From Halomicrobium mukohataei DSM 12286 (GTDB taxonomy: Archaea > Halobacteriota > Halobacteria > Halobacteriales > Haloarculaceae), in NCBI RefSeq assembly GCF_000023965.1, contig NC_013202.1:1440001-1472000 (forward strand): a stretch of 32,000 nt of DNA. Direction: 5' to 3'. The notes under the pieces are model-generated. The model was not told the DNA's origin. It saw only the letters and a program-made list of their open reading frames with translations, and searched no databases. How positions within the stretch are numbered: the first letter of the stretch is position 1; every line of letters starts with the position of its first letter. A program made the position numbers and the translations under genes. Below, piece by piece: positions 8,501 to 32,000 of this stretch.

Positions 8501-8621
8501 GCGCTGCGTTACCCGACTCTTGTCCCTCGCGGCCAAAAGCACGACGGAATCGTTCTCGGACGAGTGAGGTTATCCGTCACAGATCCCCGGAGCGAGCCGA
8601 GGGCTTTCGAGGGCCGCACTA

Positions 8622-8701
8622 TAGTAACAATTGAAACGATTTACACACCGATCGCACTGCAGTCGTGCGATCGGGTGTGCATTGATTTTCAATGGCTACT
8701 A
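8622..8701. repeat. 80-nt two-tier hairpin element B (MITE-like, single copy in window)
   Basis: Outer arms 'TAGTAACAATTGAAA' and 'TTTCAATGGCTACTA'. Inner stem 'CACACCGATCGCAC' (8644-8657) pairs with 'GTGCGATCGGGTGTG' (8665-8679) around the loop 'TGCAGTC'. Flanked by TA/TA. Shares 'ATTG..A.CGATTTAC' and the GATCG core with element A. Confidence 0.55.
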
Positions 8702-8772
8702 TAGGTGAGTGTTCGGTACAGTGACTGTCGGCGTGGTAGCGACAGCAGCTGGCGGAGAATCACCTCGATTTG

Positions 8773-11485: not shown

Positions 11486-11600
11486 CGGCGTCGCTGTCGC
11501 GCGCGACGACCGTCGAACGAGTTGCCTGCCGTTCGGAAGCCGAGCGGTCGCTCCCCCGAGGGGGGCGCTCACCGGCACCTCGCTACATCCGTCCGTATCA

Positions 11601-11679
11601 TACGGATTATTGTAGCGATTTACCGGTGATCGTCTACTCCGTGGCGACGATCACCGGCAAGCAACTACAATAAACCGTA
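11601..11679 (+). mobile_element. Hairpin element A, copy 1 (79 nt, MITE-like)
   Basis: 'TACGGATTATTGTAG...CTACAATAAACCGTA' termini (14/15 inverted). 12-bp perfect inner stem 'CCGGTGATCGTC'/'GACGATCACCGG'. Flanked by direct TCA (11598-11600) and TCA (11680-11682). 76/79 identical to copy 2 and 72/79 to copy 3. Confidence 0.75.
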
Positions 11680-11856
11680 TCAGGCCGTCTCGGCCAGCTT
11701 CACCTCTTCGAGCGCGATCTCCTCGTGCCCGTCCTCGGCCGCCAGCTCTTTGGCGGCCTGAATCGCCTCGCCGGGGCGCTTCAGATCGCCGTCGACGTGG
11801 TAGACTGTCGGTTCGCTCTCCGCGTCGACGCTGAGGTGGACTTCGAGCTGTGGCAT
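11680..11856 (-). CDS. Small acidic hypothetical protein (58 aa)
   Basis: Below the ORF-track cutoff. 'MPQLEVHLSVDAESEPTVYHVDGDLKRPGEAIQAAKELAAEDGHEEIALEEVKLAETA'. Acidic, with GC-rich third codon positions and a TATA-like box about 27 nt upstream of the ATG. The stop TGA (11682-11680) is the right target duplication of element A copy 1. Confidence 0.55.
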   Translation of the reverse strand: MPQLEVHLSVDAESEPTVYHVDGDLKRPGEAIQAAKELAAEDGHEEIALEEVKLAETA

Positions 11857-15443: not shown

Positions 15444-16661
15444 ATGGCTTCCTTTCCCGTCGAAGTGCTGCTGGGCATCTATCTGGGGTTGCTCGTCGGG
15501 ATCATCCCGGCGCTGGTCTCGTGGGCGATGGCGTTTACCTTTCGCTACTTCGCTGGCGTGACCGTCCCGGCCTTCGGTGTCGCCGTCCTCGCGATCGCGC
15601 TGGCGGGAGTCAACGGCGGGCTGCTCGCGCTGGCCGACAAGTCGATCACCGCCAGTCCGAACGCCGAGCGGATCGTCGTCGCGATTCTCGTCGTCAGCAT
15701 GGCGTCGATGTACGCCCACAGCAAGGGCGACTCGATGGGGGCGGACTTTCCCAAGCGGCTCACGCTCACGTCGCTCCGGAATCGCACGCTCTCGAAAGAC
15801 GTGGTCGACTTCGTCGGCGGCGCGGGCGAGGTCCGGATCCACGTCGTCGGCGAGGTGGCAGACATGGAGGGGTACCCGCCACTCCCCGAACCGCTCCGCG
15901 CCGAGATCCGTGGCGGCGAGTGGACGTTCCCGGCAGATCTCCGGCTCGACGAACTCGAACAGCGGCTCGCCGAGCGCCTCAAGACGGAGTTCGACCTCGG
16001 CGACGTGTCGGTCACCGTCGACGAACGCGGTCGGGCGACCGTCGTCGCAGCGCCGCCCTTCTCCGGGCTCTCGAAGCGGATCGAGGACGGCCGCCACGCG
16101 GTGTCGGTCGACGCGTTGCTCCCGACCGGGCTCGCACGCGGCGACGAGGTGACGCTGCTGACGACCGACGCACAGGTCCGCGGGACCGTCGTCAGCGCTC
16201 GCTCAGGGAGTTCCGAATCGGTCGCCGTCCCGGAGCAACCGACGGTCGAAGACGGCGAGCAGCTGCCGGCCCCCGTTCAGGCACCGACTACCGACGGCGG
16301 CGAGGGTCGGCTCACGGCCGGCGTCCGCCGGACCGACGCCCAGCCGCTCTTGCGTGCCGACCGGGCGAAAGTCGTCGTCGAATCTCGGGGCACCCGTCGG
16401 GAGTACGAACTCGTCTCGCTCCTGCGGCGTTCGGACATGCGGTTCCGGCGAGTGACACCGCACAGCGGCCAGCCCCTCGACGGCGTGACGATCGGCGAGG
16501 CGGCCCTCCGAGAGCGCTACGACGTGGCCGTCTTCGCCGTGAGGAAACCCGGCGGCTGGCGGATCGCGCCCGAGGACACGACCGAGCTGGTGGCCGGTGA
16601 ACAGCTGTTCGTCGTCGGGACGCGGGCCGACCTCGACGCCTTCGAGGAGGCGGTGGCGTGA
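15444..16661 (+). CDS. Membrane-anchored TrkA-C (RCK_C) domain protein
   Basis: About 4 N-terminal TM segments. Central 'ELEQRLAERLKTEFDLGDVSVTVDERG'. C-terminal RCK_C-like 'GQPLDGVTIGEAALRERYDVAVFAVRKPGGWRIAPEDTTELVAGEQLFVVG'. Confidence 0.85.
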   Translation: MASFPVEVLLGIYLGLLVGIIPALVSWAMAFTFRYFAGVTVPAFGVAVLAIALAGVNGGLLALADKSITASPNAERIVVAILVVSMASMYAHSKGDSMGADFPKRLTLTSLRNRTLSKDVVDFVGGAGEVRIHVVGEVADMEGYPPLPEPLRAEIRGGEWTFPADLRLDELEQRLAERLKTEFDLGDVSVTVDERGRATVVAAPPFSGLSKRIEDGRHAVSVDALLPTGLARGDEVTLLTTDAQVRGTVVSARSGSSESVAVPEQPTVEDGEQLPAPVQAPTTDGGEGRLTAGVRRTDAQPLLRADRAKVVVESRGTRREYELVSLLRRSDMRFRRVTPHSGQPLDGVTIGEAALRERYDVAVFAVRKPGGWRIAPEDTTELVAGEQLFVVGTRADLDAFEEAVA

Positions 16662-18496
16662 CGCTCCAGCTCGTCAGCGGCGTGACGGGGGCCCTCGTCG
16701 ACACGACCGCCCGAATCGCCGGCACGGCGGTGCTCGCCGGCTTCCTCGCGGCGGCGGTCGCGCTGTTCTACCGGTGGTACGTCCGCGAGCGGGTGCCGGT
16801 CGGACTGGCGTTGCTGGTCGGGCTCTCCGGCGTCGCCGCCGTCGCCGGGGCGACCTCGCTGCTGGCCCAGCAGCTCGTGCCGGGCGGTGCCGACCCGGAC
16901 GCCCTCGTGGCGCTGCTCAACGTCGTCACGTTCCTCGTCGGCGGCCTCGGGGCGTACGCAGGCATGCGGGTCGGCGACACACTCGGGATCGACCTGTTCG
17001 CGGCGACGGGGGGCAACGGGATCGACGGCGAGGTCAGCGAACTCGTCAAGGCCGTCGGTCGCGTCATCGCCGTCGAGATCCCCGAGGAGATCGACGACAT
17101 CGTCGGCTACGATCCGGTCGCGGCCGCGACCCGGGAGACCCTCGCCGGTCGGACGTTCCTCTTCCCGCGGCGGCTCACGCAGGCGGAGCTGCGCGAGCGG
17201 TTCGTCTCGCGGCTGAAGACCGACTACGGCGTCGGCCACGTCGACGTGGAGTTCGACGAGGCCGGCAACATCGAGTACCTGGCGCTGGGCTCGCGGGCCG
17301 CCGGGATCGGTCCGACGCTCCCGCCGGCCACCAACGCGGTCGCGATCCGGGCCGACCCGGCAAACGCCGCCAGCGCGGGCGATCTCGTCCAGGTCTGGGA
17401 GACCGATCCCCCGCGGCGCGTGCTCACGGGAGAGCTCCGCGGCGTCGCCGACGAGATCGTCACGGTCGCCATCGACGCTGCCGACACGCCCAAACTCGAC
17501 CCCACGAGCCGGTACAAGCTCGTGACGCTGCCGGTCCAGGACCGGCCGGACCGGGAGTTCGCGTCCCTCCTCCGGGCCGCAGACGAGACCCTCGCCACGG
17601 TCACCGTCGCGGCGGGCTCCCCGATCGACGGGACCCCCGTGGGTTCGCTGTCGGTCACCGTCGCTGCCGTCACACGCGACGACGAGCGGCCCGTCCCGCT
17701 TCCGTCACGAGACCGGGTCCTCAGGGCTGGCGACGTACTCTACGCCATCGCGACGCCGGACGCGCTCCGGAAGCTGGAGGCCGCCACCGCGGCCCCCGAG
17801 GGCGCGGTCGCGGAGCCGGCCGACGGGACGGACGACGAACCGGCGACGGCCGCCGAGGACGCGACAGCCCCGGAACCCGCGGCGAGCGACCGCCCACCAG
17901 CGGACCACCGGCCCGACCAGTCGGAAAGCGAGCGACGAGCGGACGCGTCCGACGGGCAACCGGACGCCGGAGACGAGGTGGTGGGCGACGACGCGGACGA
18001 CACATCGACGACAGAAAGCGAGGCCGATGCGTCGGGCGACGACGGCGCGGACGATGCCGCCCTCTCTGGCGACGCGTTCCCCGACAGCGACGACCTCCCG
18101 GGCATCGATCCCGAGGACGCGACGGCGTCCCCGTCCGACGGCGGAGACGACGACACCGAGGCGATCCCCGACACCGCCGCGTTTCCCGACACCGACGACC
18201 TCCCCGGATCGGAGCTGACAGACGAGGGAGACGCCCGAGCGGATCGGGAGGACGACGGGGACGGAACCGACGGCGCGACGGCGCGGAGCGCGCCGTCGGA
18301 CGAGGACGAAGCCGCGGGCGACTTCGCCGACCTGCTCGACACCGATGTCGGCGCGGGCGACGACCTGGACGACCTCCTCGACGAGGACACCGGCGACACG
18401 GTCGATCTCGACGACGAAACGGCGGACGGATCGGAAGCGGACGACCGCCTCGACGAGGACACCGACGAGACGGACGACCGCGACCGGACCGCCTGA
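16658..18496 (+). CDS. Membrane-anchored TrkA-C (RCK_C) domain protein with long hyperacidic C-terminal tail; paralog of 15444..16661
   Basis: GTG 16658 overlaps the upstream stop (GTGA). 'AELRERFVSRLKTDYGVGHVDVEFDEAG' parallels the paralog. RCK_C-like 'GSPIDGTPVGSLSVTVAAVTRDDERPVPLPSRDRVLRAGDVLYAIA'. From about nt 17780 onward the protein is a roughly 240-aa D/E/A/T-rich tail. Confidence 0.85.
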   Translation: MTLQLVSGVTGALVDTTARIAGTAVLAGFLAAAVALFYRWYVRERVPVGLALLVGLSGVAAVAGATSLLAQQLVPGGADPDALVALLNVVTFLVGGLGAYAGMRVGDTLGIDLFAATGGNGIDGEVSELVKAVGRVIAVEIPEEIDDIVGYDPVAAATRETLAGRTFLFPRRLTQAELRERFVSRLKTDYGVGHVDVEFDEAGNIEYLALGSRAAGIGPTLPPATNAVAIRADPANAASAGDLVQVWETDPPRRVLTGELRGVADEIVTVAIDAADTPKLDPTSRYKLVTLPVQDRPDREFASLLRAADETLATVTVAAGSPIDGTPVGSLSVTVAAVTRDDERPVPLPSRDRVLRAGDVLYAIATPDALRKLEAATAAPEGAVAEPADGTDDEPATAAEDATAPEPAASDRPPADHRPDQSESERRADASDGQPDAGDEVVGDDADDTSTTESEADASGDDGADDAALSGDAFPDSDDLPGIDPEDATASPSDGGDDDTEAIPDTAAFPDTDDLPGSELTDEGDARADREDDGDGTDGATARSAPSDEDEAAGDFADLLDTDVGAGDDLDDLLDEDTGDTVDLDDETADGSEADDRLDEDTDETDDRDRTA

Positions 18497-18618
18497 TACG
18501 GAACGTTGTCGTCGCTTCCCGGTCGGTCCTCACGGGGGAGGACCACCGGTCGATCGCGGCGACCCGCGCGACCGACCCAACCGCTACCGTTATTTTGCGG
18601 CCGCCGTAGGGCACTGAC

Positions 18619-19395
18619 ATGGCTGGGCACGACGGCGTCGGGCGGCGACTCGAACGGCTAGTCGGGCGCTACTTCGGCGTGACGTTGCCAGACACTGAGA
18701 GATTGCCCCGGTACGTCGCGCCGCTGCCCGAGTGGCTCGAAGACCTGGGACTCCGACTGGCCTGGCCGATCGCGCTGGTCAATCTCGTCGGGACGCTCTT
18801 TGGGTTCTGGTACTACGCGGGTCGGCCGCTGAACCTCGCGCCGCCCCTGGTCGAAGGACAGCTCGGCGCTGCACCGGCGCTGGCCTACCCACTGATCCCC
18901 GACTCGCCCGTCGCGACGATGTTCATCGGGCTCTCGCTCGTGGCCTGGCGACTGGACTACGACGCCGACTGGCTCCACATGCTGGCGTTCTTCGGCTGCC
19001 TGAAGCTCGGGCTGTGGACGCCCTACGTCCAGCTCGTGATCAACGGGCCGGCCGGCGTCCCGCTGTGGCTCTACTGGTTCCTGATCCTGAGCCACATGGC
19101 GATGGCCGTCGAGGCCTTCCTGATCCACCGCTACGCGTCGTTCTCGGTGTCGGCCGTCGCCGTCGCACTGGGCTGGTACGGCTTCAACGACGTGGTGGAC
19201 TACTTCGTCCCGGTTCTGGGCGGGCCACACCACACCTGGCTGCGAGCGGAGTCCGTCGTCGGCGGGTTCGACCACACGCTCCCGGCCCACAATCTGGCCG
19301 CCGGCTGGGCGGTGGTGCTGACGTTCGTCGCCGTCTTCCTCGCACTGGCGACGCGGGTCGAGAAGTGCAAACGCCGCGAGGCCGCCCCGGAGTGA
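18619..19395 (+). CDS. Polytopic membrane protein, probably DUF1405 family
   Basis: 258 aa with about 6 TM segments. 'LAWPIALVNLVGTLFGFWYYAG' resembles the conserved N-terminal region of DUF1405 proteins as I recall them. Confidence 0.75.
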   Translation: MAGHDGVGRRLERLVGRYFGVTLPDTERLPRYVAPLPEWLEDLGLRLAWPIALVNLVGTLFGFWYYAGRPLNLAPPLVEGQLGAAPALAYPLIPDSPVATMFIGLSLVAWRLDYDADWLHMLAFFGCLKLGLWTPYVQLVINGPAGVPLWLYWFLILSHMAMAVEAFLIHRYASFSVSAVAVALGWYGFNDVVDYFVPVLGGPHHTWLRAESVVGGFDHTLPAHNLAAGWAVVLTFVAVFLALATRVEKCKRREAAPE

Positions 19396-19807
19396 GACTG
19401 CGAGAAGCGAACGCCGCCCCCCTCAGGCCGCGCCGACGGCGGCCGCGACGAAGGTCCATCGGGTACCGCTGCGGGTTTCGGTCTCTTTCTGTGCTGCACG
19501 GTGCTGGTCGCGTCGGTGTTGCCAGTTCATCGTAGCCGAATAGAGGGGACGTACACGCATGAGTGTTTCGTGAAATTGATATAATTGTCGTGAACGTCAG
19601 TTACAGTTAGAGTGTCTATGTAGCACGGATAGTCGGCTAACCATCTCTCCCTCATCGAAATAGGTAACTGAACTGTCTGCTAGAATCGCGGTAGCACACC
19701 GCAGGGGCGACGGACGACGCCGCCGATCTCGCGCACGTCGCGTGGCGATGGCCGACACTTCGCGCGGCTCGGGACCCTCCACAGACCGAGCGCCACTGCC
19801 GTCCGTA

Positions 19808-20782
19808 TCAGTCGGACTCGAAGCCGTTTGGCTCGGTTCGGACCGGGGGGTCGTTCGGCCGGAGACCCGGAACGCGGCGGCGGACCGCCGTGGCGTCGAC
19901 GGACTGGCTTCCGAGCACGGCGAAGCCGGCGAAGATCGTCAGGAAGCCGGCGACGGCAGTCGGTGCGATCGTCTCGTCGAGCAGCGCCCACCCGCCCAGC
20001 GTCGCGACGACCGGGACGACGTAGAACACGAGGTTCGCACGGATCGGCCCGGCCGTGTCCAGTAGCTCGAAGTAGGCGATGTAGGCGATCGCACCGGCGA
20101 AGACCCCGACGTAGCCAAGCGCCAGCAGCGCCTCGCCGCTCCAGGTGATCGCGCCGACGGATTCGCCGGCAGCACGGCTCAGGGCGTGCGTGAGGCCGGC
20201 ACCGAGGGGGAGTCCCCAGGCAGTGCGGACGCTGCTGGACAGCTCTCCGTCGGCCCAGCGGATGAGCACGCTGCCAAGCGCGCCGCTGACCGCACCGGCA
20301 AAGAGGATCGCCTTGCCGAACCCACCGGCGAGGAGGTTCGCCGGGTCGGGGCTGACGACCAGTCCGACGCCGAGCAGGCCGAGGATCATCCCGGCGCTGC
20401 CCCGAGCCGAGAGCCGATCGTCGGCCAACAGGACTGCCGCGAACACCGGCGTCAGGATCGGGTTGAGGCTGAAGACGATCGAACCGACGGCACTGGTGGC
20501 GTACTGCTGGCCGACGAACAGCAGCGCGTTGGTCAGCCCGATGGCGAAGATCCCGGTGGCGACGATGCCCACCACGTCGCCGCGAGTGCGCGGCAGGAGT
20601 GCCTCGCGGGGCGTCGTCGCGACGGCGTAGCCGATCAGGACGACCGACGCCACGTCGAAGCGCAGGGCGACGAACAGCAGGGGCGGGAAGTAGTCCAGTC
20701 CCGCCTTCGCGGCGACGAACGTCCCCCCGAAGAGGACGCTCGCGACCGCGAACGACACGAGCGTTCTGCGGCTGCCGTTCAC
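19808..20782 (-). CDS. DMT-superfamily transporter (two EamA repeats)
   Basis: GTG 20782 ('VNGSRRTLVSFAVASVLFGGTFVAAKAGLDYFPPLLFVALRF') and 10 TM segments in a 5+5 arrangement. The upstream part of the listed 439-aa ORF is R-rich and non-coding-like. Confidence 0.85.
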   Translation of the reverse strand: MNGSRRTLVSFAVASVLFGGTFVAAKAGLDYFPPLLFVALRFDVASVVLIGYAVATTPREALLPRTRGDVVGIVATGIFAIGLTNALLFVGQQYATSAVGSIVFSLNPILTPVFAAVLLADDRLSARGSAGMILGLLGVGLVVSPDPANLLAGGFGKAILFAGAVSGALGSVLIRWADGELSSSVRTAWGLPLGAGLTHALSRAAGESVGAITWSGEALLALGYVGVFAGAIAYIAYFELLDTAGPIRANLVFYVVPVVATLGGWALLDETIAPTAVAGFLTIFAGFAVLGSQSVDATAVRRRVPGLRPNDPPVRTEPNGFESD

Positions 20783-28756: not shown

Positions 28757-29110
28757 GTCCACCGCTACTCGTGTCGAGGGCAAAAGAGTAGCTTCTCGCG
28801 TGTGTCGGGGCGGTCGACACTGTCGTTTGCGGGCCGCCGCGAGCAAGAGTGTGCGGTATCTGACACTCACGTTTCCGGGGTCGCCCTCCTCTGAGCGCGA
28901 AGACGCGCTGGTTCCGGGCCTCGACGTCGACCACGGGACGATCTGTACGTCTTCGTTCACTCCCGGCCGAGTGCGGAGCTGGCAGAGTTGCTCCGAATCG
29001 TCGAGCGCCACCGGCTGATCGTCGAGCTACACGACAACCTCTCGTTTGCTCCCTCGATCACGCTTCGTCCAGACGGTCCCGTCGAGATGACGGTCCGCCG
29101 TCGTGACTGA

Positions 29111-29189
29111 TACGGATTATTGTAGCCATTTGCCGGTGATCGTCTACTCCGTGGCGACGATCACCGGTAAGCAACTACAATAAACCGTA
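29111..29189 (+). mobile_element. Hairpin element A, copy 2 (79 nt, MITE-like)
   Basis: 76/79 identical to copy 1 with no indels. Flanked by direct TGA (29108-29110) and TGA (29190-29192). It lies 39 nt downstream of the stop of the pilin-like gene (minus strand). Confidence 0.75.
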
Positions 29190-29228
29190 TGAGAAAGAGT
29201 GCGGCACCGACCGCCGGGGTGCAAAGCG

Positions 29229-29798
29229 TCACTGGCTCGTCGCGGTCAACGTCTTCGTGATCGGAACCGACTCCGTCGGCGTGTGAACGACGCGGACGGT
29301 GATCTCCTCGGCTTTCTCGATCGTACAGTCCGTATCGGGAATACGGAACGCGATCTGATCGCTGGCCGTGTACTCCGATCCGTGGATCGCGTTCTCGTCG
29401 GGCGTGCCGTCGCTGTTGTACGACCGCTCGTCGAAGATGTCGTCGCCCTCGATGTTGGCGGGACCGATCGCCTTACCGCCGTACCGGTCGACGGGGAGAT
29501 TCACGAGCCGCCCCTTCTTGCCGCAGGCGTCGGTCGCGTCGACGACGACCTCCATCTCGGGGACCGGGATCCGGTCGCCTGCGACGTGGGTGAGGCGGAC
29601 GATGCCGTTGCCGTCACCCACAGTGTTCGCTTCGAGCGTGCCACTGGACTGGCCGACGACGGGTCCCGGCTTGGTCGCCTCCTCGGCGAACCCGAGCGCG
29701 AACACCGAGACGGTCGCGGCCAGGATAACGACGACTGCGACCAGCAGGACGTTCGCTACCACCGGGGAAACGGCGCGACCGGATCGAGACGACATCAT
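29229..29798 (-). CDS. Archaeal type IV pilin-like protein (class III signal peptide, DUF1628-type N-terminus)
   Basis: ATG 29798 ('MMSSRSGRAVSPVVANVLLVAVVVILAATVSVFALGF'). The 'RAVSPV' plus hydrophobic helix is the archaeal prepilin/archaellin-like N-terminal domain. The listed start at 29807 is a TTG. Confidence 0.8.
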   Translation of the reverse strand: MMSSRSGRAVSPVVANVLLVAVVVILAATVSVFALGFAEEATKPGPVVGQSSGTLEANTVGDGNGIVRLTHVAGDRIPVPEMEVVVDATDACGKKGRLVNLPVDRYGGKAIGPANIEGDDIFDERSYNSDGTPDENAIHGSEYTASDQIAFRIPDTDCTIEKAEEITVRVVHTPTESVPITKTLTATSQ

Positions 29799-29824
29799 GT
29801 TCGGCAATTCAGCAAAGCTAACAC

Positions 29825-30299: not shown

Positions 30300-30365
30300 A
30301 CTCGAATAGTTGGGTTCGACGCTCTTGTATCTTCACCTATGGGTCTCGGACGACCGGTAGTGTCG

Positions 30366-30444
30366 TACGGATTATTGTAGCGATGTACCGGTGATCGTCT
30401 ACCCCGTGGCGACGATCGCCGGTACGCAACTACAACAAGCCGTA
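30366..30444 (+). mobile_element. Hairpin element A, copy 3 (79 nt, MITE-like, most diverged)
   Basis: 72/79 identical to copy 1 with no indels. Flanked by TCG (30363-30365) and TCA (30445-30447). It shows a compensatory T-A to G-C change at element positions 20/60 (nt 30385/30425). Confidence 0.75.
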
Positions 30445-30447
30445 TCA

Positions 30448-30525
30448 TACTGCCGGCTGTAAGTCTGTATAGAATTTCGCGACCGCATTGTCGCGAATAT
30501 CTTGAAACAGTTACAGCCGGCAGTA
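30448..30525. mobile_element. Hairpin element C (78 nt, MITE-like), tandem to A copy 3
   Basis: Perfect 15-bp terminal inverted repeat 'TACTGCCGGCTGTAA'/'TTACAGCCGGCAGTA'. Inner 8-bp stem 'TTCGCGAC'/'GTCGCGAA' (30476-30483 / 30490-30497). Flanked by TCA (30445-30447) and TCA (30526-30528), the latter being the symporter stop codon. Confidence 0.7.
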
Positions 30526-32000
30526 TCAGTCGCCGTCGACACCCGAGACGCTGTACAGGCCGGCGTCCTCGCCGGGGGACGCGCTCGTCACGAGCGAGAC
30601 GCCGACGGTCAGGACCAGTCCCAGCGCCATGCAGACGACGCTGGCCGACCAGCCACCGAGGTAGCTGCCGGGCACGAACGGGAGGAAGACGCTGGCGAGG
30701 TAGAACAGCTGCGAGCCGCCGACGCCGGCGTACATCCCCCAGCGGGTCGTCCGGGGCCAGTACAGCGCGACGATGACGGGCAGGGCCAGCTGGGCGAAGC
30801 CGCCGAACGCGGTGTCGCCGATCTGGACGAGCGTTCCCGGCGCGTAGAGGCTGGCGACGAACGAGACCGTCGCGAAGACGACCACGCCAGCGCGGGCGAG
30901 CAGCGTCTCGCGGTCGCGGTCGGAGTGAAGCGTGCGACCGACGGAGACGGCGACTGCGAGCAGGGATCGGCGGACGCGGTTCACCAGCGACGCGCGGTCC
31001 GGCAGCGTCGGCTCCTCCTCGGCGAGGTCGGTCACCGGTCGGTAGAGGTCGCGAGTGAGGTAGGAGGCGCCCGAGAGCAGCATCGAGTCGCTGGAGGACA
31101 TCATGGCGGCCAGCGCCGCGGCGACGACGGCCGCCGTGAACCACCCGGCGGTGTACTCGTTGAGCACCGCCGGGATCACGTTGCCGTTCTCCGGAACGGT
31201 GACGCCCAGGCCGGCGGCCCACGCGCCGAGCATGAACGCGGGGACGAACAGCAGGACCACCAGTACGGGCCACAGCGCCAGCGTCCGCTTGAGCACTTTC
31301 TGGGAGCGAGCGACGAAGAAGCGCTGGTTGATCTGGGGGAACATCGTCACGCCGAAGGCGATGGAAATCGCCGTCGAGAGGACGTACTCCGGCGTGTACA
31401 GCCCGCCGCCCAGTGCGAGGAACTCGGGGTTGGTCTCGGCCAGTCGGTCCGTCGCCGCCGCCGGGCCGCCGACCGCCGAGAGGATCCAGGCGACGGCCGC
31501 CCAGATCAGCCCGAGCATGACGATCCCCTGGAGCGTGTCGGTCCAGGCGACCCCGCGCATCCCCGAGACGGCGACGTAGACGATCATAAAGAGCGTGATG
31601 CCGCCGGCACCGACCCAGAACGGGACCGCGCCGTCGGTCAGTCCGACGACCGCCTGGCCGGCACCCTTCTGCTGGAGCATCACGTAGGGAAAGAGCCAGA
31701 AGAGACTGATCGCCGCCACGAGCCCGCGGAGGAGACGCGAGCCGAAGCGATCGCCCAGCATCTCCCCGAGCGTGACGTAGCCGTGGCGCTGGCCGACGAG
31801 CCACTGCTTGTACCCCAGCACGTACCAGAGGACGGCGAAGATGATCCCGTCCATCAGCCCCATCACCAGCAGCCACTCGGGTCCCTGCGCGAAGGTGAGG
31901 TTCGGGCCGCCAAAGAAGGTAAAGGCCGACAGCAGCGTCGCGAACGTCGTGAACAGGAGTACGACCGTGCCGAATGTCCGGCTGGCGAGGTAGTAGTCTT
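30526..32000 (-). CDS. Sodium:solute symporter family (SSF) transporter, 5' end outside window
   Basis: The reading frame stays open upstream of the listed GTG 31866 to the window edge ('..DYYLASRTFGTVVLLFTTFATLLSAFTFFGGPNLTFAQGPEWLLVMGLMDG..'), which is the canonical SSF N-terminus. At least 12 TM segments. Confidence 0.9.
   Translation of the reverse strand, partial: DYYLASRTFGTVVLLFTTFATLLSAFTFFGGPNLTFAQGPEWLLVMGLMDGIIFAVLWYVLGYKQWLVGQRHGYVTLGEMLGDRFGSRLLRGLVAAISLFWLFPYVMLQQKGAGQAVVGLTDGAVPFWVGAGGITLFMIVYVAVSGMRGVAWTDTLQGIVMLGLIWAAVAWILSAVGGPAAATDRLAETNPEFLALGGGLYTPEYVLSTAISIAFGVTMFPQINQRFFVARSQKVLKRTLALWPVLVVLLFVPAFMLGAWAAGLGVTVPENGNVIPAVLNEYTAGWFTAAVVAAALAAMMSSSDSMLLSGASYLTRDLYRPVTDLAEEEPTLPDRASLVNRVRRSLLAVAVSVGRTLHSDRDRETLLARAGVVVFATVSFVASLYAPGTLVQIGDTAFGGFAQLALPVIVALYWPRTTRWGMYAGVGGSQLFYLASVFLPFVPGSYLGGWSASVVCMALGLVLTVGVSLVTSASPGEDAGLYSVSGVDGD

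Follow-up and report, generated by a model that had tools for sequence, protein, structure and literature searches.

A 79-nt foldback repeat of Halomicrobium, probably a non-autonomous transposable element that duplicates T(G/C)A triplets and often lies at stop codons

Introduction

Three copies of a short hairpin, equal in length and orientation, lie in a 32,000-nt stretch of the Halomicrobium mukohataei DSM 12286 genome (NC_013202.1, positions 1,440,001 to 1,472,000; hereafter the window, whose coordinates apply wherever no sampled locus, L001 and so on, is named). The locus raises the question of whether such hairpins are mobile DNA or structural elements of host transcripts and, if they are mobile, how their sites are chosen and by which enzyme they are moved. 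Archaeal MITEs are poorly documented, and those of haloarchaea have so far been described with target duplications of 6-10 bp and identified parent transposons (PMC3119063, Table S8). The repeat, here called family A, was analyzed in the window, in other haloarchaeal genomes and in metagenomes. We put at about 85% the probability that it is a non-autonomous haloarchaeal foldback MITE with a 3-bp T(G/C)A duplication and a life cycle that targets stop codons.

Results

Three family A copies in the window

Copy 1 (subfamily A1, with the loop form termed 'flip') is a 79-nt foldback MITE at 11601-11679, copy 2 (A1, flip) lies at 29111-29189 and copy 3, a more diverged A1 member, at 30366-30444, all on the plus strand. 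All three are 79 nt long and align without gaps, with pairwise identities of 76/79 (copies 1 and 2), 72/79 (1 and 3) and 71/79 (2 and 3). They were the sole long dispersed repeat family returned by a repeat search of the window, and each was recovered by nhmmer with E of about 1e-25, far past chance. The design consists of two inverted arms of about 34 nt around an 11-nt loop and has no coding capacity. The outer stem (1-15 with 65-79) holds 14, 14 and 13 Watson-Crick pairs in copies 1, 2 and 3, respectively, and the inner stem (23-34 with 46-57) holds 12, 12 and 11 plus one G-T wobble. Folding energies were -39.6, -44.3 and -41.5 kcal/mol, which corresponds to z scores of -6 to -9 against dinucleotide shuffles, none of 200 of which was equally stable. 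The coordinates, equal length, gap-free alignment, identities to copy 1 and two-tier stem architecture with an 11-nt loop in the initial annotation of this DNA were all reproduced. That annotation had also recognized no known RNA family or repeat, and we obtained the same outcome: Rfam gave no match in the window at the gathering threshold and merely sub-threshold chance matches to miRNA hairpin models under relaxed thresholds, while our literature search found no paper containing the terminal sequences of family A and no such family in reviews or haloarchaeal mobilome papers.

The flanks first reported for these copies (TCA/TCA, TGA/TGA and TCG/TCA) were likewise found. The left TCA of the copy 1 duplication (11598-11600, plus strand) also flanks an older decayed copy, and the right TCA (11680-11682), read on the minus strand, is the TGA stop codon of a 58-aa gene (11680-11856, minus strand; public-contig gene call at L001 9737-9913). 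Copy 2 is flanked by TGA at 29108-29110 and 29190-29192, and the stop codon of a pilin-like gene (29229-29807, minus strand) lies 36 nt from it. The left TGA of copy 2 also terminates a putative 40-codon ORF at 28988-29110, which may be a genuine small gene or a fragment of a larger one. Copy 3 lies between TCG (30363-30365), which is one substitution away from the right-hand triplet, and TCA (30445-30447).

Copy number, spread and subfamilies

One genome per GTDB species was scanned with a degenerate 34-nt arm pattern, which was present in 105 genome blocks. Of these, 88 came from H. katesii DSM 19301, the collection's representative for the Halomicrobium species of the window, and other blocks came from the Halobacteriales MAG QS_4_62_28, three Haloarcula species, Salinirubellus, Natrialba, Natronolimnohabitans and a Natronomonas MAG; two blocks were chance bacterial matches. 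The same pattern had no match in the viral contigs scanned. A profile search of the sampled H. katesii blocks recovered at least 117 full-length and 16 partial copies, a density of at least 37 copies per Mb, and 98 of the first 115 profile matches were exactly 79 nt long. BLAST placed the element at nine positions on a plasmid of H. mukohataei JP60, and 62 contigs from JGI/ENA metagenomes contributed 66 full copies of unchanged length and design.

Subfamilies A1, A2 and A3 have their termini in common; A2 (TACGGACGGTTGTAGGAAT...) also retains the core, while A3 has a different core of 80 nt. Among the H. katesii copies, 15 were identical to a 'flip' master and 14 to a 'flop' master, two sequences which differ solely by the reverse complementation of the 11-nt loop. 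Family A has therefore been active recently, as this burst of identical copies demonstrates.

Mobility and the duplicated triplet

Identical trinucleotides flanked 106 of the 117 H. katesii copies (TGA/TGA 57, TCA/TCA 48, TTA/TTA 1), and the other 11 flank pairs were one substitution off an identical pair. In the metagenomes 52 of 66 copies had perfect flank pairs. Copies identical over all 79 nt differed in their flank pair (TGA/TGA, TCA/TCA or TTA/TTA), and the base at the center of the triplet did not depend on the orientation of the element (37/20 and 20/28). Because identical elements differ in their triplet and the central base ignores orientation, the triplet is a copy of target sequence and does not form part of the element; a right triplet belonging to the element, in the style of IS200/IS605, was rejected on the same observation.

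The clearest case of mobility was a single TGA at 8565-8567 (plus strand), which is an empty target site. On the reverse strand the window reads AACC-TCA-CTCG, and H. katesii reads AACC-TCA-(79 nt)-TCA-CTCG with a family A copy at L046 6535-6613, so that the filled and empty sites differ by the element plus 3 bp. There is no TA at the junction of the empty site, and a TA duplication of the IS630/mariner type was accordingly discarded. This was the one perfectly clean empty site recovered; other polymorphic loci were complex, and two of them (cases 2 and 4 of the strain comparison) were rejected as empty sites since they were too rearranged. Copies 1 and 2 have orthologs in H. katesii at L046 3099-3177 and L022 2321-2399, respectively. 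Copy 3 is absent at the orthologous site of L022 together with the family B element that adjoins it (see below), and the symporter stop codon there is followed by no more than an old B-like end (..CCGGCAGTA-TCA).

Family A thus combines inverted repeats that reach the ends, a duplication of fixed length, no coding content, high copy number and strain polymorphism, and columns 1-5 and 75-79 were nearly invariant among 66 distinct sequences. The proposal that these hairpins are mobile, non-autonomous MITEs was borne out by the empty site in a related strain, by the consistent 3-bp direct repeats on 106 of 117 full copies and by the 29 copies identical to the two masters. As for the TNA target suggested initially, the length of 3 bp was confirmed; a freely variable central base was not, since TGA or TCA was the triplet in 105 of 106 clean cases, TTA occurring once and TAA never.

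Pairing and loop inversion

Among the 66 distinct 79-nt sequences, 92.9% of paired cells were complementary compared with 87.8% in column shuffles and 30-51% in slid controls. Double changes which preserve pairing were observed at 9/71 (A-T to G-C, 20 sequences), 30/50 (T-A to G-C, 20 sequences), 20/60 (10 sequences) and 14/66 (5 sequences), although with sequences related by descent these represent few events. The palindrome is clearly maintained across subfamilies, in agreement with the earlier statement that substitutions between copies preserve pairing. Given two inverted arms, kept pairing is by itself no argument for RNA.

The loop TACTCCGTGGC was also present in reverse-complemented form (GCCACGGAGTA) on otherwise identical arms, as in L033 1267 (flip) and L033 1994 (flop), with a further example on the JP60 plasmid (L005 44583). 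There were 46 flip and 27 flop loops in A1, and 18 and 9 in A2. Since both orientations occur in A1 and in A2, the loop has been inverted on more than one occasion or passed from copy to copy, and both forms are able to amplify. Copies were mildly skewed in orientation with respect to the gene upstream (37:20).

These data bear on the idea that the hairpins are primarily host RNA elements, such as 3'-end stabilizers, terminators or small RNAs, which are kept by selection and whose repeat structure is secondary. Such a role would suit a very stable fold beginning at the first base after a stop codon, pairing kept by compensatory changes, and an architecture, size and central CCGTGG motif common to families A and B. 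It does not suit the bursts of identical copies, the weak orientation bias, a loop that occurs in both orientations, the lack in copies 1-3 of a T-run of the kind used in archaeal termination, the lack of an Rfam family or the insertion of ISs into copies. As the sole explanation it is refuted by the empty site and the presence/absence polymorphism between strains, and we regard it as extremely improbable, though hairpins may have been co-opted secondarily. The pattern is better explained by constraint acting on the palindrome as DNA, or by copying of one arm from the other via fold-back intermediates, than by a strand-specific RNA.

Target choice and stop codons

Genes were called with a codon log-odds model trained on 209 long ORFs, which reproduced the public-contig gene calls for the window. 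The flanking triplet coincided with the stop codon of a gene for 64 of the 117 H. katesii copies, while three copies abutted another family A copy, 50 were elsewhere in intergenic DNA and none was inside a gene. Occupied were 59 of 400 TGA stops (15%) versus 45 of 3514 other non-coding TGA/TCA triplets (1.3%; Fisher p = 6e-33), a comparison in which the absolute occupancies are inflated through the choice of blocks for their element content and the contrasts within blocks are fair, and in which, with 23% of the DNA left non-coding by the gene caller, part of the 'other' sites may be stops that the caller missed and part of the background may be coding. TAA stops were occupied in 1 of 86 cases. 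The excess at stop codons was still 3- to 5-fold once conditioned on C-TGA-G or AC-TGA contexts.

Independent annotation gave the same picture. On the JP60 plasmid, 6 of 10 family A copies start at a stop codon of the RefSeq annotation, as does a family B copy, and single copies on Halomontanus and Natrialbaceae plasmids also lie at RefSeq-annotated stop codons. Two plasmid matches (H2 and H3) that had been considered as IS ends were in fact 79-80-nt copies at annotated stop codons. Target bias and stop-codon enrichment are features of family A, and the overlap of its triplet with stop codons, its most distinctive property, had escaped the initial annotation, as had the decayed copies and family B described below.

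Reconstructed empty sites revealed an extended preference of approximately (G)AC-TGA-GAC(GG). At position -2, A was found at 70% of occupied and 39% of unoccupied TGA stops, and at position +3, C was found at 75% and 31%, respectively; the motif downstream of TGA consists partly of debris from older elements, so that preference and history are confounded in it.

Could random insertion over T(G/C)A triplets, followed by purifying selection on genes and promoters, have left the excess at stop codons? No copy was genic even though coding TGA/TCA triplets outnumber non-coding ones by about 2.5 to 1, and a stop codon regenerated by the duplication would be the sole triplet of a gene that tolerates insertion, the position directly behind it being the safest one under this model. 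Selection after the event should, however, not produce several of the patterns observed. The youngest copies, identical to the masters, were at stops as often (16/34) as those with more than two substitutions (23/41). A flank motif distinguishes occupied sites from unoccupied TGA stops, non-coding AC-TGA-GA sites were occupied in 18 of 28 cases wherever they were located, and different A subfamilies inserted at least five times into the internal TGA of another repeat, family C. Later selection as the source of the excess is consequently unlikely. We conclude that sequence preference at insertion is the main cause, to which immediate loss of genic insertions adds.

Decayed copies and related repeats

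Several sites in the window contain more than one element. Next to copy 1 lies an older, decayed family A copy (11517-11597, minus strand), inverted relative to copy 1 and having the TCA at 11598-11600 in common with it, as expected of a tandem insertion. A longer, apparent 8-bp repeat (CCGTATCA) beside copy 1 arises because this decayed inverted copy shares the left TCA. A second decayed copy (18497-18568, minus strand) directly follows the TGA stop (18494-18496) of a gene at 16658-18496 (plus strand), and a remnant of a family A end (TACGGACGGCAGTGG...; 19766-19807, minus strand, inner limit approximate) directly follows stop codon 19808-19810 of a gene at 19808-20758 (minus strand). New copies accumulate beside decayed older ones, and many right flanks start with GACGG, TACGG, GACTG or TACTG, several of them being recognizable older elements.

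Immediately beyond copy 3 lies a member of family B, a foldback element of 77-78 nt (TACTGCCGGCTGTAA...TTACAGCCGGCAGTA) represented by the window copy and 15 more (for example L004 11725-11802 and L099 3033-3110). The window copy (30448-30525, plus strand, 78 nt, TACTGCCGGCTGTAAG...TTACAGCCGGCAGTA) is flanked by TCA/TCA, its left TCA being the right TCA of copy 3 (30445-30447) and its right TCA (30526-30528), read on the minus strand, being the TGA stop of a sodium:solute symporter gene (30526-31866, minus strand). All 16 family B copies have perfect TCA/TCA or TGA/TGA flanks, and they are more diverged from one another than the copies of family A. TAC.G ends, TGTA at positions 11-14, a central CCGTGG/CCACGG and size are common to both families, and on these sequence features one enzyme probably moves both.

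A third repeat, family C, is a hairpin of about 84 nt (TATAGTAACAATTGAAACGATTTACACACCGATCGCACTGC.GTCGTGCGATCGGGTGTGCATTGATTTTCAATGGCTACTATA) found at 8620-8703 in the window and in 28 copies in the sampled loci, with flanks that are possibly TA. Its internal AAT-TGA-AAC is the site of the repeated landings of different A subfamilies mentioned above.

Other stop codons are followed by shorter sequences. The TGA stop of the gene at 18619-19395 runs into GACTGCGAGAAGCG (19393-19420), which resembles a family B-type end, and short palindromes (GACTGCCGGCAGTC or GACGGCGGCCGTC) directly follow TGA stops at, for example, L107 7728, L085 2655 and L092 5143. These post-stop palindromes look like collapsed family B or A hairpins, or are possibly a natural target. 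The region 3' of an EamA-type gene (19606-19799, compared with L086 2997-3152) is divergent between strains, with two tandem family A copies in L086 and, in the window, a TACGGACGG stub followed by about 190 bp of unrelated DNA.

Three unrelated ISs have in turn inserted into the AT-rich right arm of A1, and interrupted A1 copies were noted at L041 3633-5741, L094 ~4721, L084 ~1545, L020 7875 and L055 ~891. One of these ISs has GAGGGTGTCATAGAAC ends, with an 8-bp duplication ACAATAAA in L041; another, ISH1-like, has GGCCTTGTTTAGACGC ends (full copy L063 1162-2097); and the third, of the DDE_5 type, has ACTCAGCTTTGAACG ends (full copy L022 6318-7599). Beside the ortholog of copy 2, H. katesii L022 3005-7597 is a low-G+C island containing an IS1595-type transposase, a 735-aa low-G+C ORF and a DDE_5 transposase.

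Search for the mobilizing enzyme

In accordance with the initial annotation, the window contains no transposase gene. Neither a long element with family A ends nor, when ORFs of 150 aa or more were compared all against all, a multi-copy transposase ORF occurred in about 1.57 Mb of DNA that carries the element. Long candidates bounded by TACGG/TACTG with equal triplets were just separate pairs of MITEs around ordinary genes, L120 7976-10678 for instance being two family B copies. IS1595-type, DDE_5 and DDE_Tnp_1 transposases found by a Pfam scan of low-G+C ORFs were rejected on account of their ends, and a 'transposase' beside a Natrialbaceae copy proved to be TnpB. The ends of the ISs found in the sampled DNA are GGCCTTGTTTAGACGC, GAGGGTGTCATAGAAC or ACTCAGCTTTGAACG, not TACGG. 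It is possible that the partner lies outside the sampled DNA.

In sequence terms, a 3-bp staggered cut at a C-TNA-G-like core would fit a DDE enzyme; a core preference of this kind is known for IS5-family targets. A contrasting proposal is mobilization as single-stranded DNA by an HUH/Y1 enzyme, as for REPIN/RAYT or PATE/TnpA systems, in which case the 'duplication' would be a fixed target triplet plus the last three bases of the element. The whole element is indeed one hairpin, positions 12-15 are a near-invariant GT(A/C)G reminiscent of the GTAG that REP sequences reportedly carry, both loop orientations on the same arms suggest fold-back intermediates, and the sampled DNA yielded no DDE partner. 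IS200/IS605-type elements are, moreover, abundant in haloarchaea (PMC3119063). Variable triplets on identical copies with a central base independent of orientation nevertheless indicate a copied target and no fixed end, and PATEs and REPINs have neither inverted repeats that reach their ends nor a duplication (PMC3119063). Neither a TnpA nor a RAYT gene adjoined the copies in a non-exhaustive survey of the sampled loci, where the IS605-type genes met encoded TnpB alone. An enzyme of the HUH/Y1 class is thus highly unlikely to be responsible.

Discussion

The reading we favor is that of a non-autonomous foldback MITE with a life cycle built around stop codons. A transposase supplied in trans would make a 3-bp staggered cut at T(G/C)A, the TAC...GTA ends would be joined to the target, and repair would duplicate the triplet. 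The right half of the target resembles the end of family A itself (TGA-TACGG). This genome uses TGA as its main stop codon, and an ORF remains intact after insertion on its TGA stop because the duplication regenerates the stop codon. After insertion there, the 3' untranslated region would begin with the hairpin, a position in which about half of the copies are found. The long palindromes would then decay by arm-to-arm deletion and point mutation to stubs that consist of a triplet and an end-like sequence, and such stubs may attract further insertions, leading to tandem and nested arrays. The DDE-type chemistry, mobilization in trans, the cycle of decay and retargeting and any effect on host transcripts are what we infer from these patterns.

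A more far-reaching version would see in family A an orphan haloarchaeal transposition system whose natural site is the TGA stop in its context, rebuilt by the duplication, with a single-copy or domesticated RAYT-like enzyme, a fold-back intermediate and hairpins co-opted as 3'-end modules of mRNAs. A fold-back intermediate is hinted at because flip and flop loops occur together with co-variation from arm to arm. We consider this combination as a whole to be doubtful.

Family A is abundant and occurs in several haloarchaeal genera and in hypersaline metagenomes. A hairpin of -40 kcal/mol marks the 3' ends of dozens of genes and may affect transcript ends and stability. Such hairpins confuse gene and sRNA prediction, and they are ready markers for strain typing. 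Through its overlap with stop codons, a transposon fits into a compact genome of 67% G+C with genes unbroken; if the insertion preference is true, it offers a testable case of target choice.

Among DDE-type systems, the IS1031 group of the IS5 family, to which the initial annotation pointed, has a similar target and would be a candidate mobilizer. Ends of the IS1031/IS427 group start with GAG, whereas those of family A start with TAC. The duplication of family A is also 3 bp long at a TNA-type triplet, and the IS1031 group is described as inserting into three-nucleotide sites (PMC2516522). The sampled DNA contained no IS5-family element with family A ends, and the sole IS5-like element met there (L063 1162-2097, DDE_Tnp_1) has GGCCTTGTTTAGACGC ends and no 3-bp duplication. 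Eukaryotic PIF/Harbinger-Tourist elements are relatives of the IS5 family.

Compared with REP/REPIN sequences, family A has in common extragenic hairpins of about 80-100 nt in hundreds of copies, a location just 3' of genes and a GTAG-like tetranucleotide. REPINs have no duplication and a single-copy Y1 gene flanked by REPs, whereas family A has a clear duplication and the sampled loci showed no gene of this kind. We know of no RAYT described in archaea. PATEs derived from IS200/IS605 are defined by the lack of terminal inverted repeats, by subterminal palindromes at both ends, by the lack of a duplication and by a fixed target of 4-6 nt on one side (PMC3119063), while family A has terminal inverted repeats, a single hairpin and a duplicated triplet with a variable, orientation-independent central base.

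In Haloquadratum walsbyi, HqIRS41 (79-80 bp, ITR 17/21) is of the same size as family A (PMC3119063, Table S8) and similar to it in having prominent inverted terminal repeats unlike any known transposon, strain-specific insertions and an enigmatic mobilization (PMC3119063). The small mobile repeats of Haloquadratum are described as lacking target duplications and as targeting other mobile elements, a description that sets family A apart (PMC3119063). Prokaryotic foldback MITEs with almost no internal sequence include Correia of Neisseria, the cyanobacterial Nezha, SM of Sulfolobus and HqIRS of Haloquadratum. Like prokaryotic MITEs in general, family A is short and non-coding, has terminal inverted repeats, a duplication of fixed length and near-identical copies, is intergenic and polymorphic between strains, and is nested with other mobile elements (PMC10969869, PMC3119063). 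It differs in that no parent IS with matching ends is known, in that 79 nt is at the lower limit of size and in that about half of the copies have a stop codon as their triplet. In a 2024 census the archaeal genome with the highest number of MITEs was an unclassified Haloarculaceae MAG (PMC11602168), and family A copies may sit uncharacterized in such bulk catalogues. On this comparison we rate family A not as a new category but as a new MITE family, a modest variant by virtue of a duplication that coincides with stop codons.
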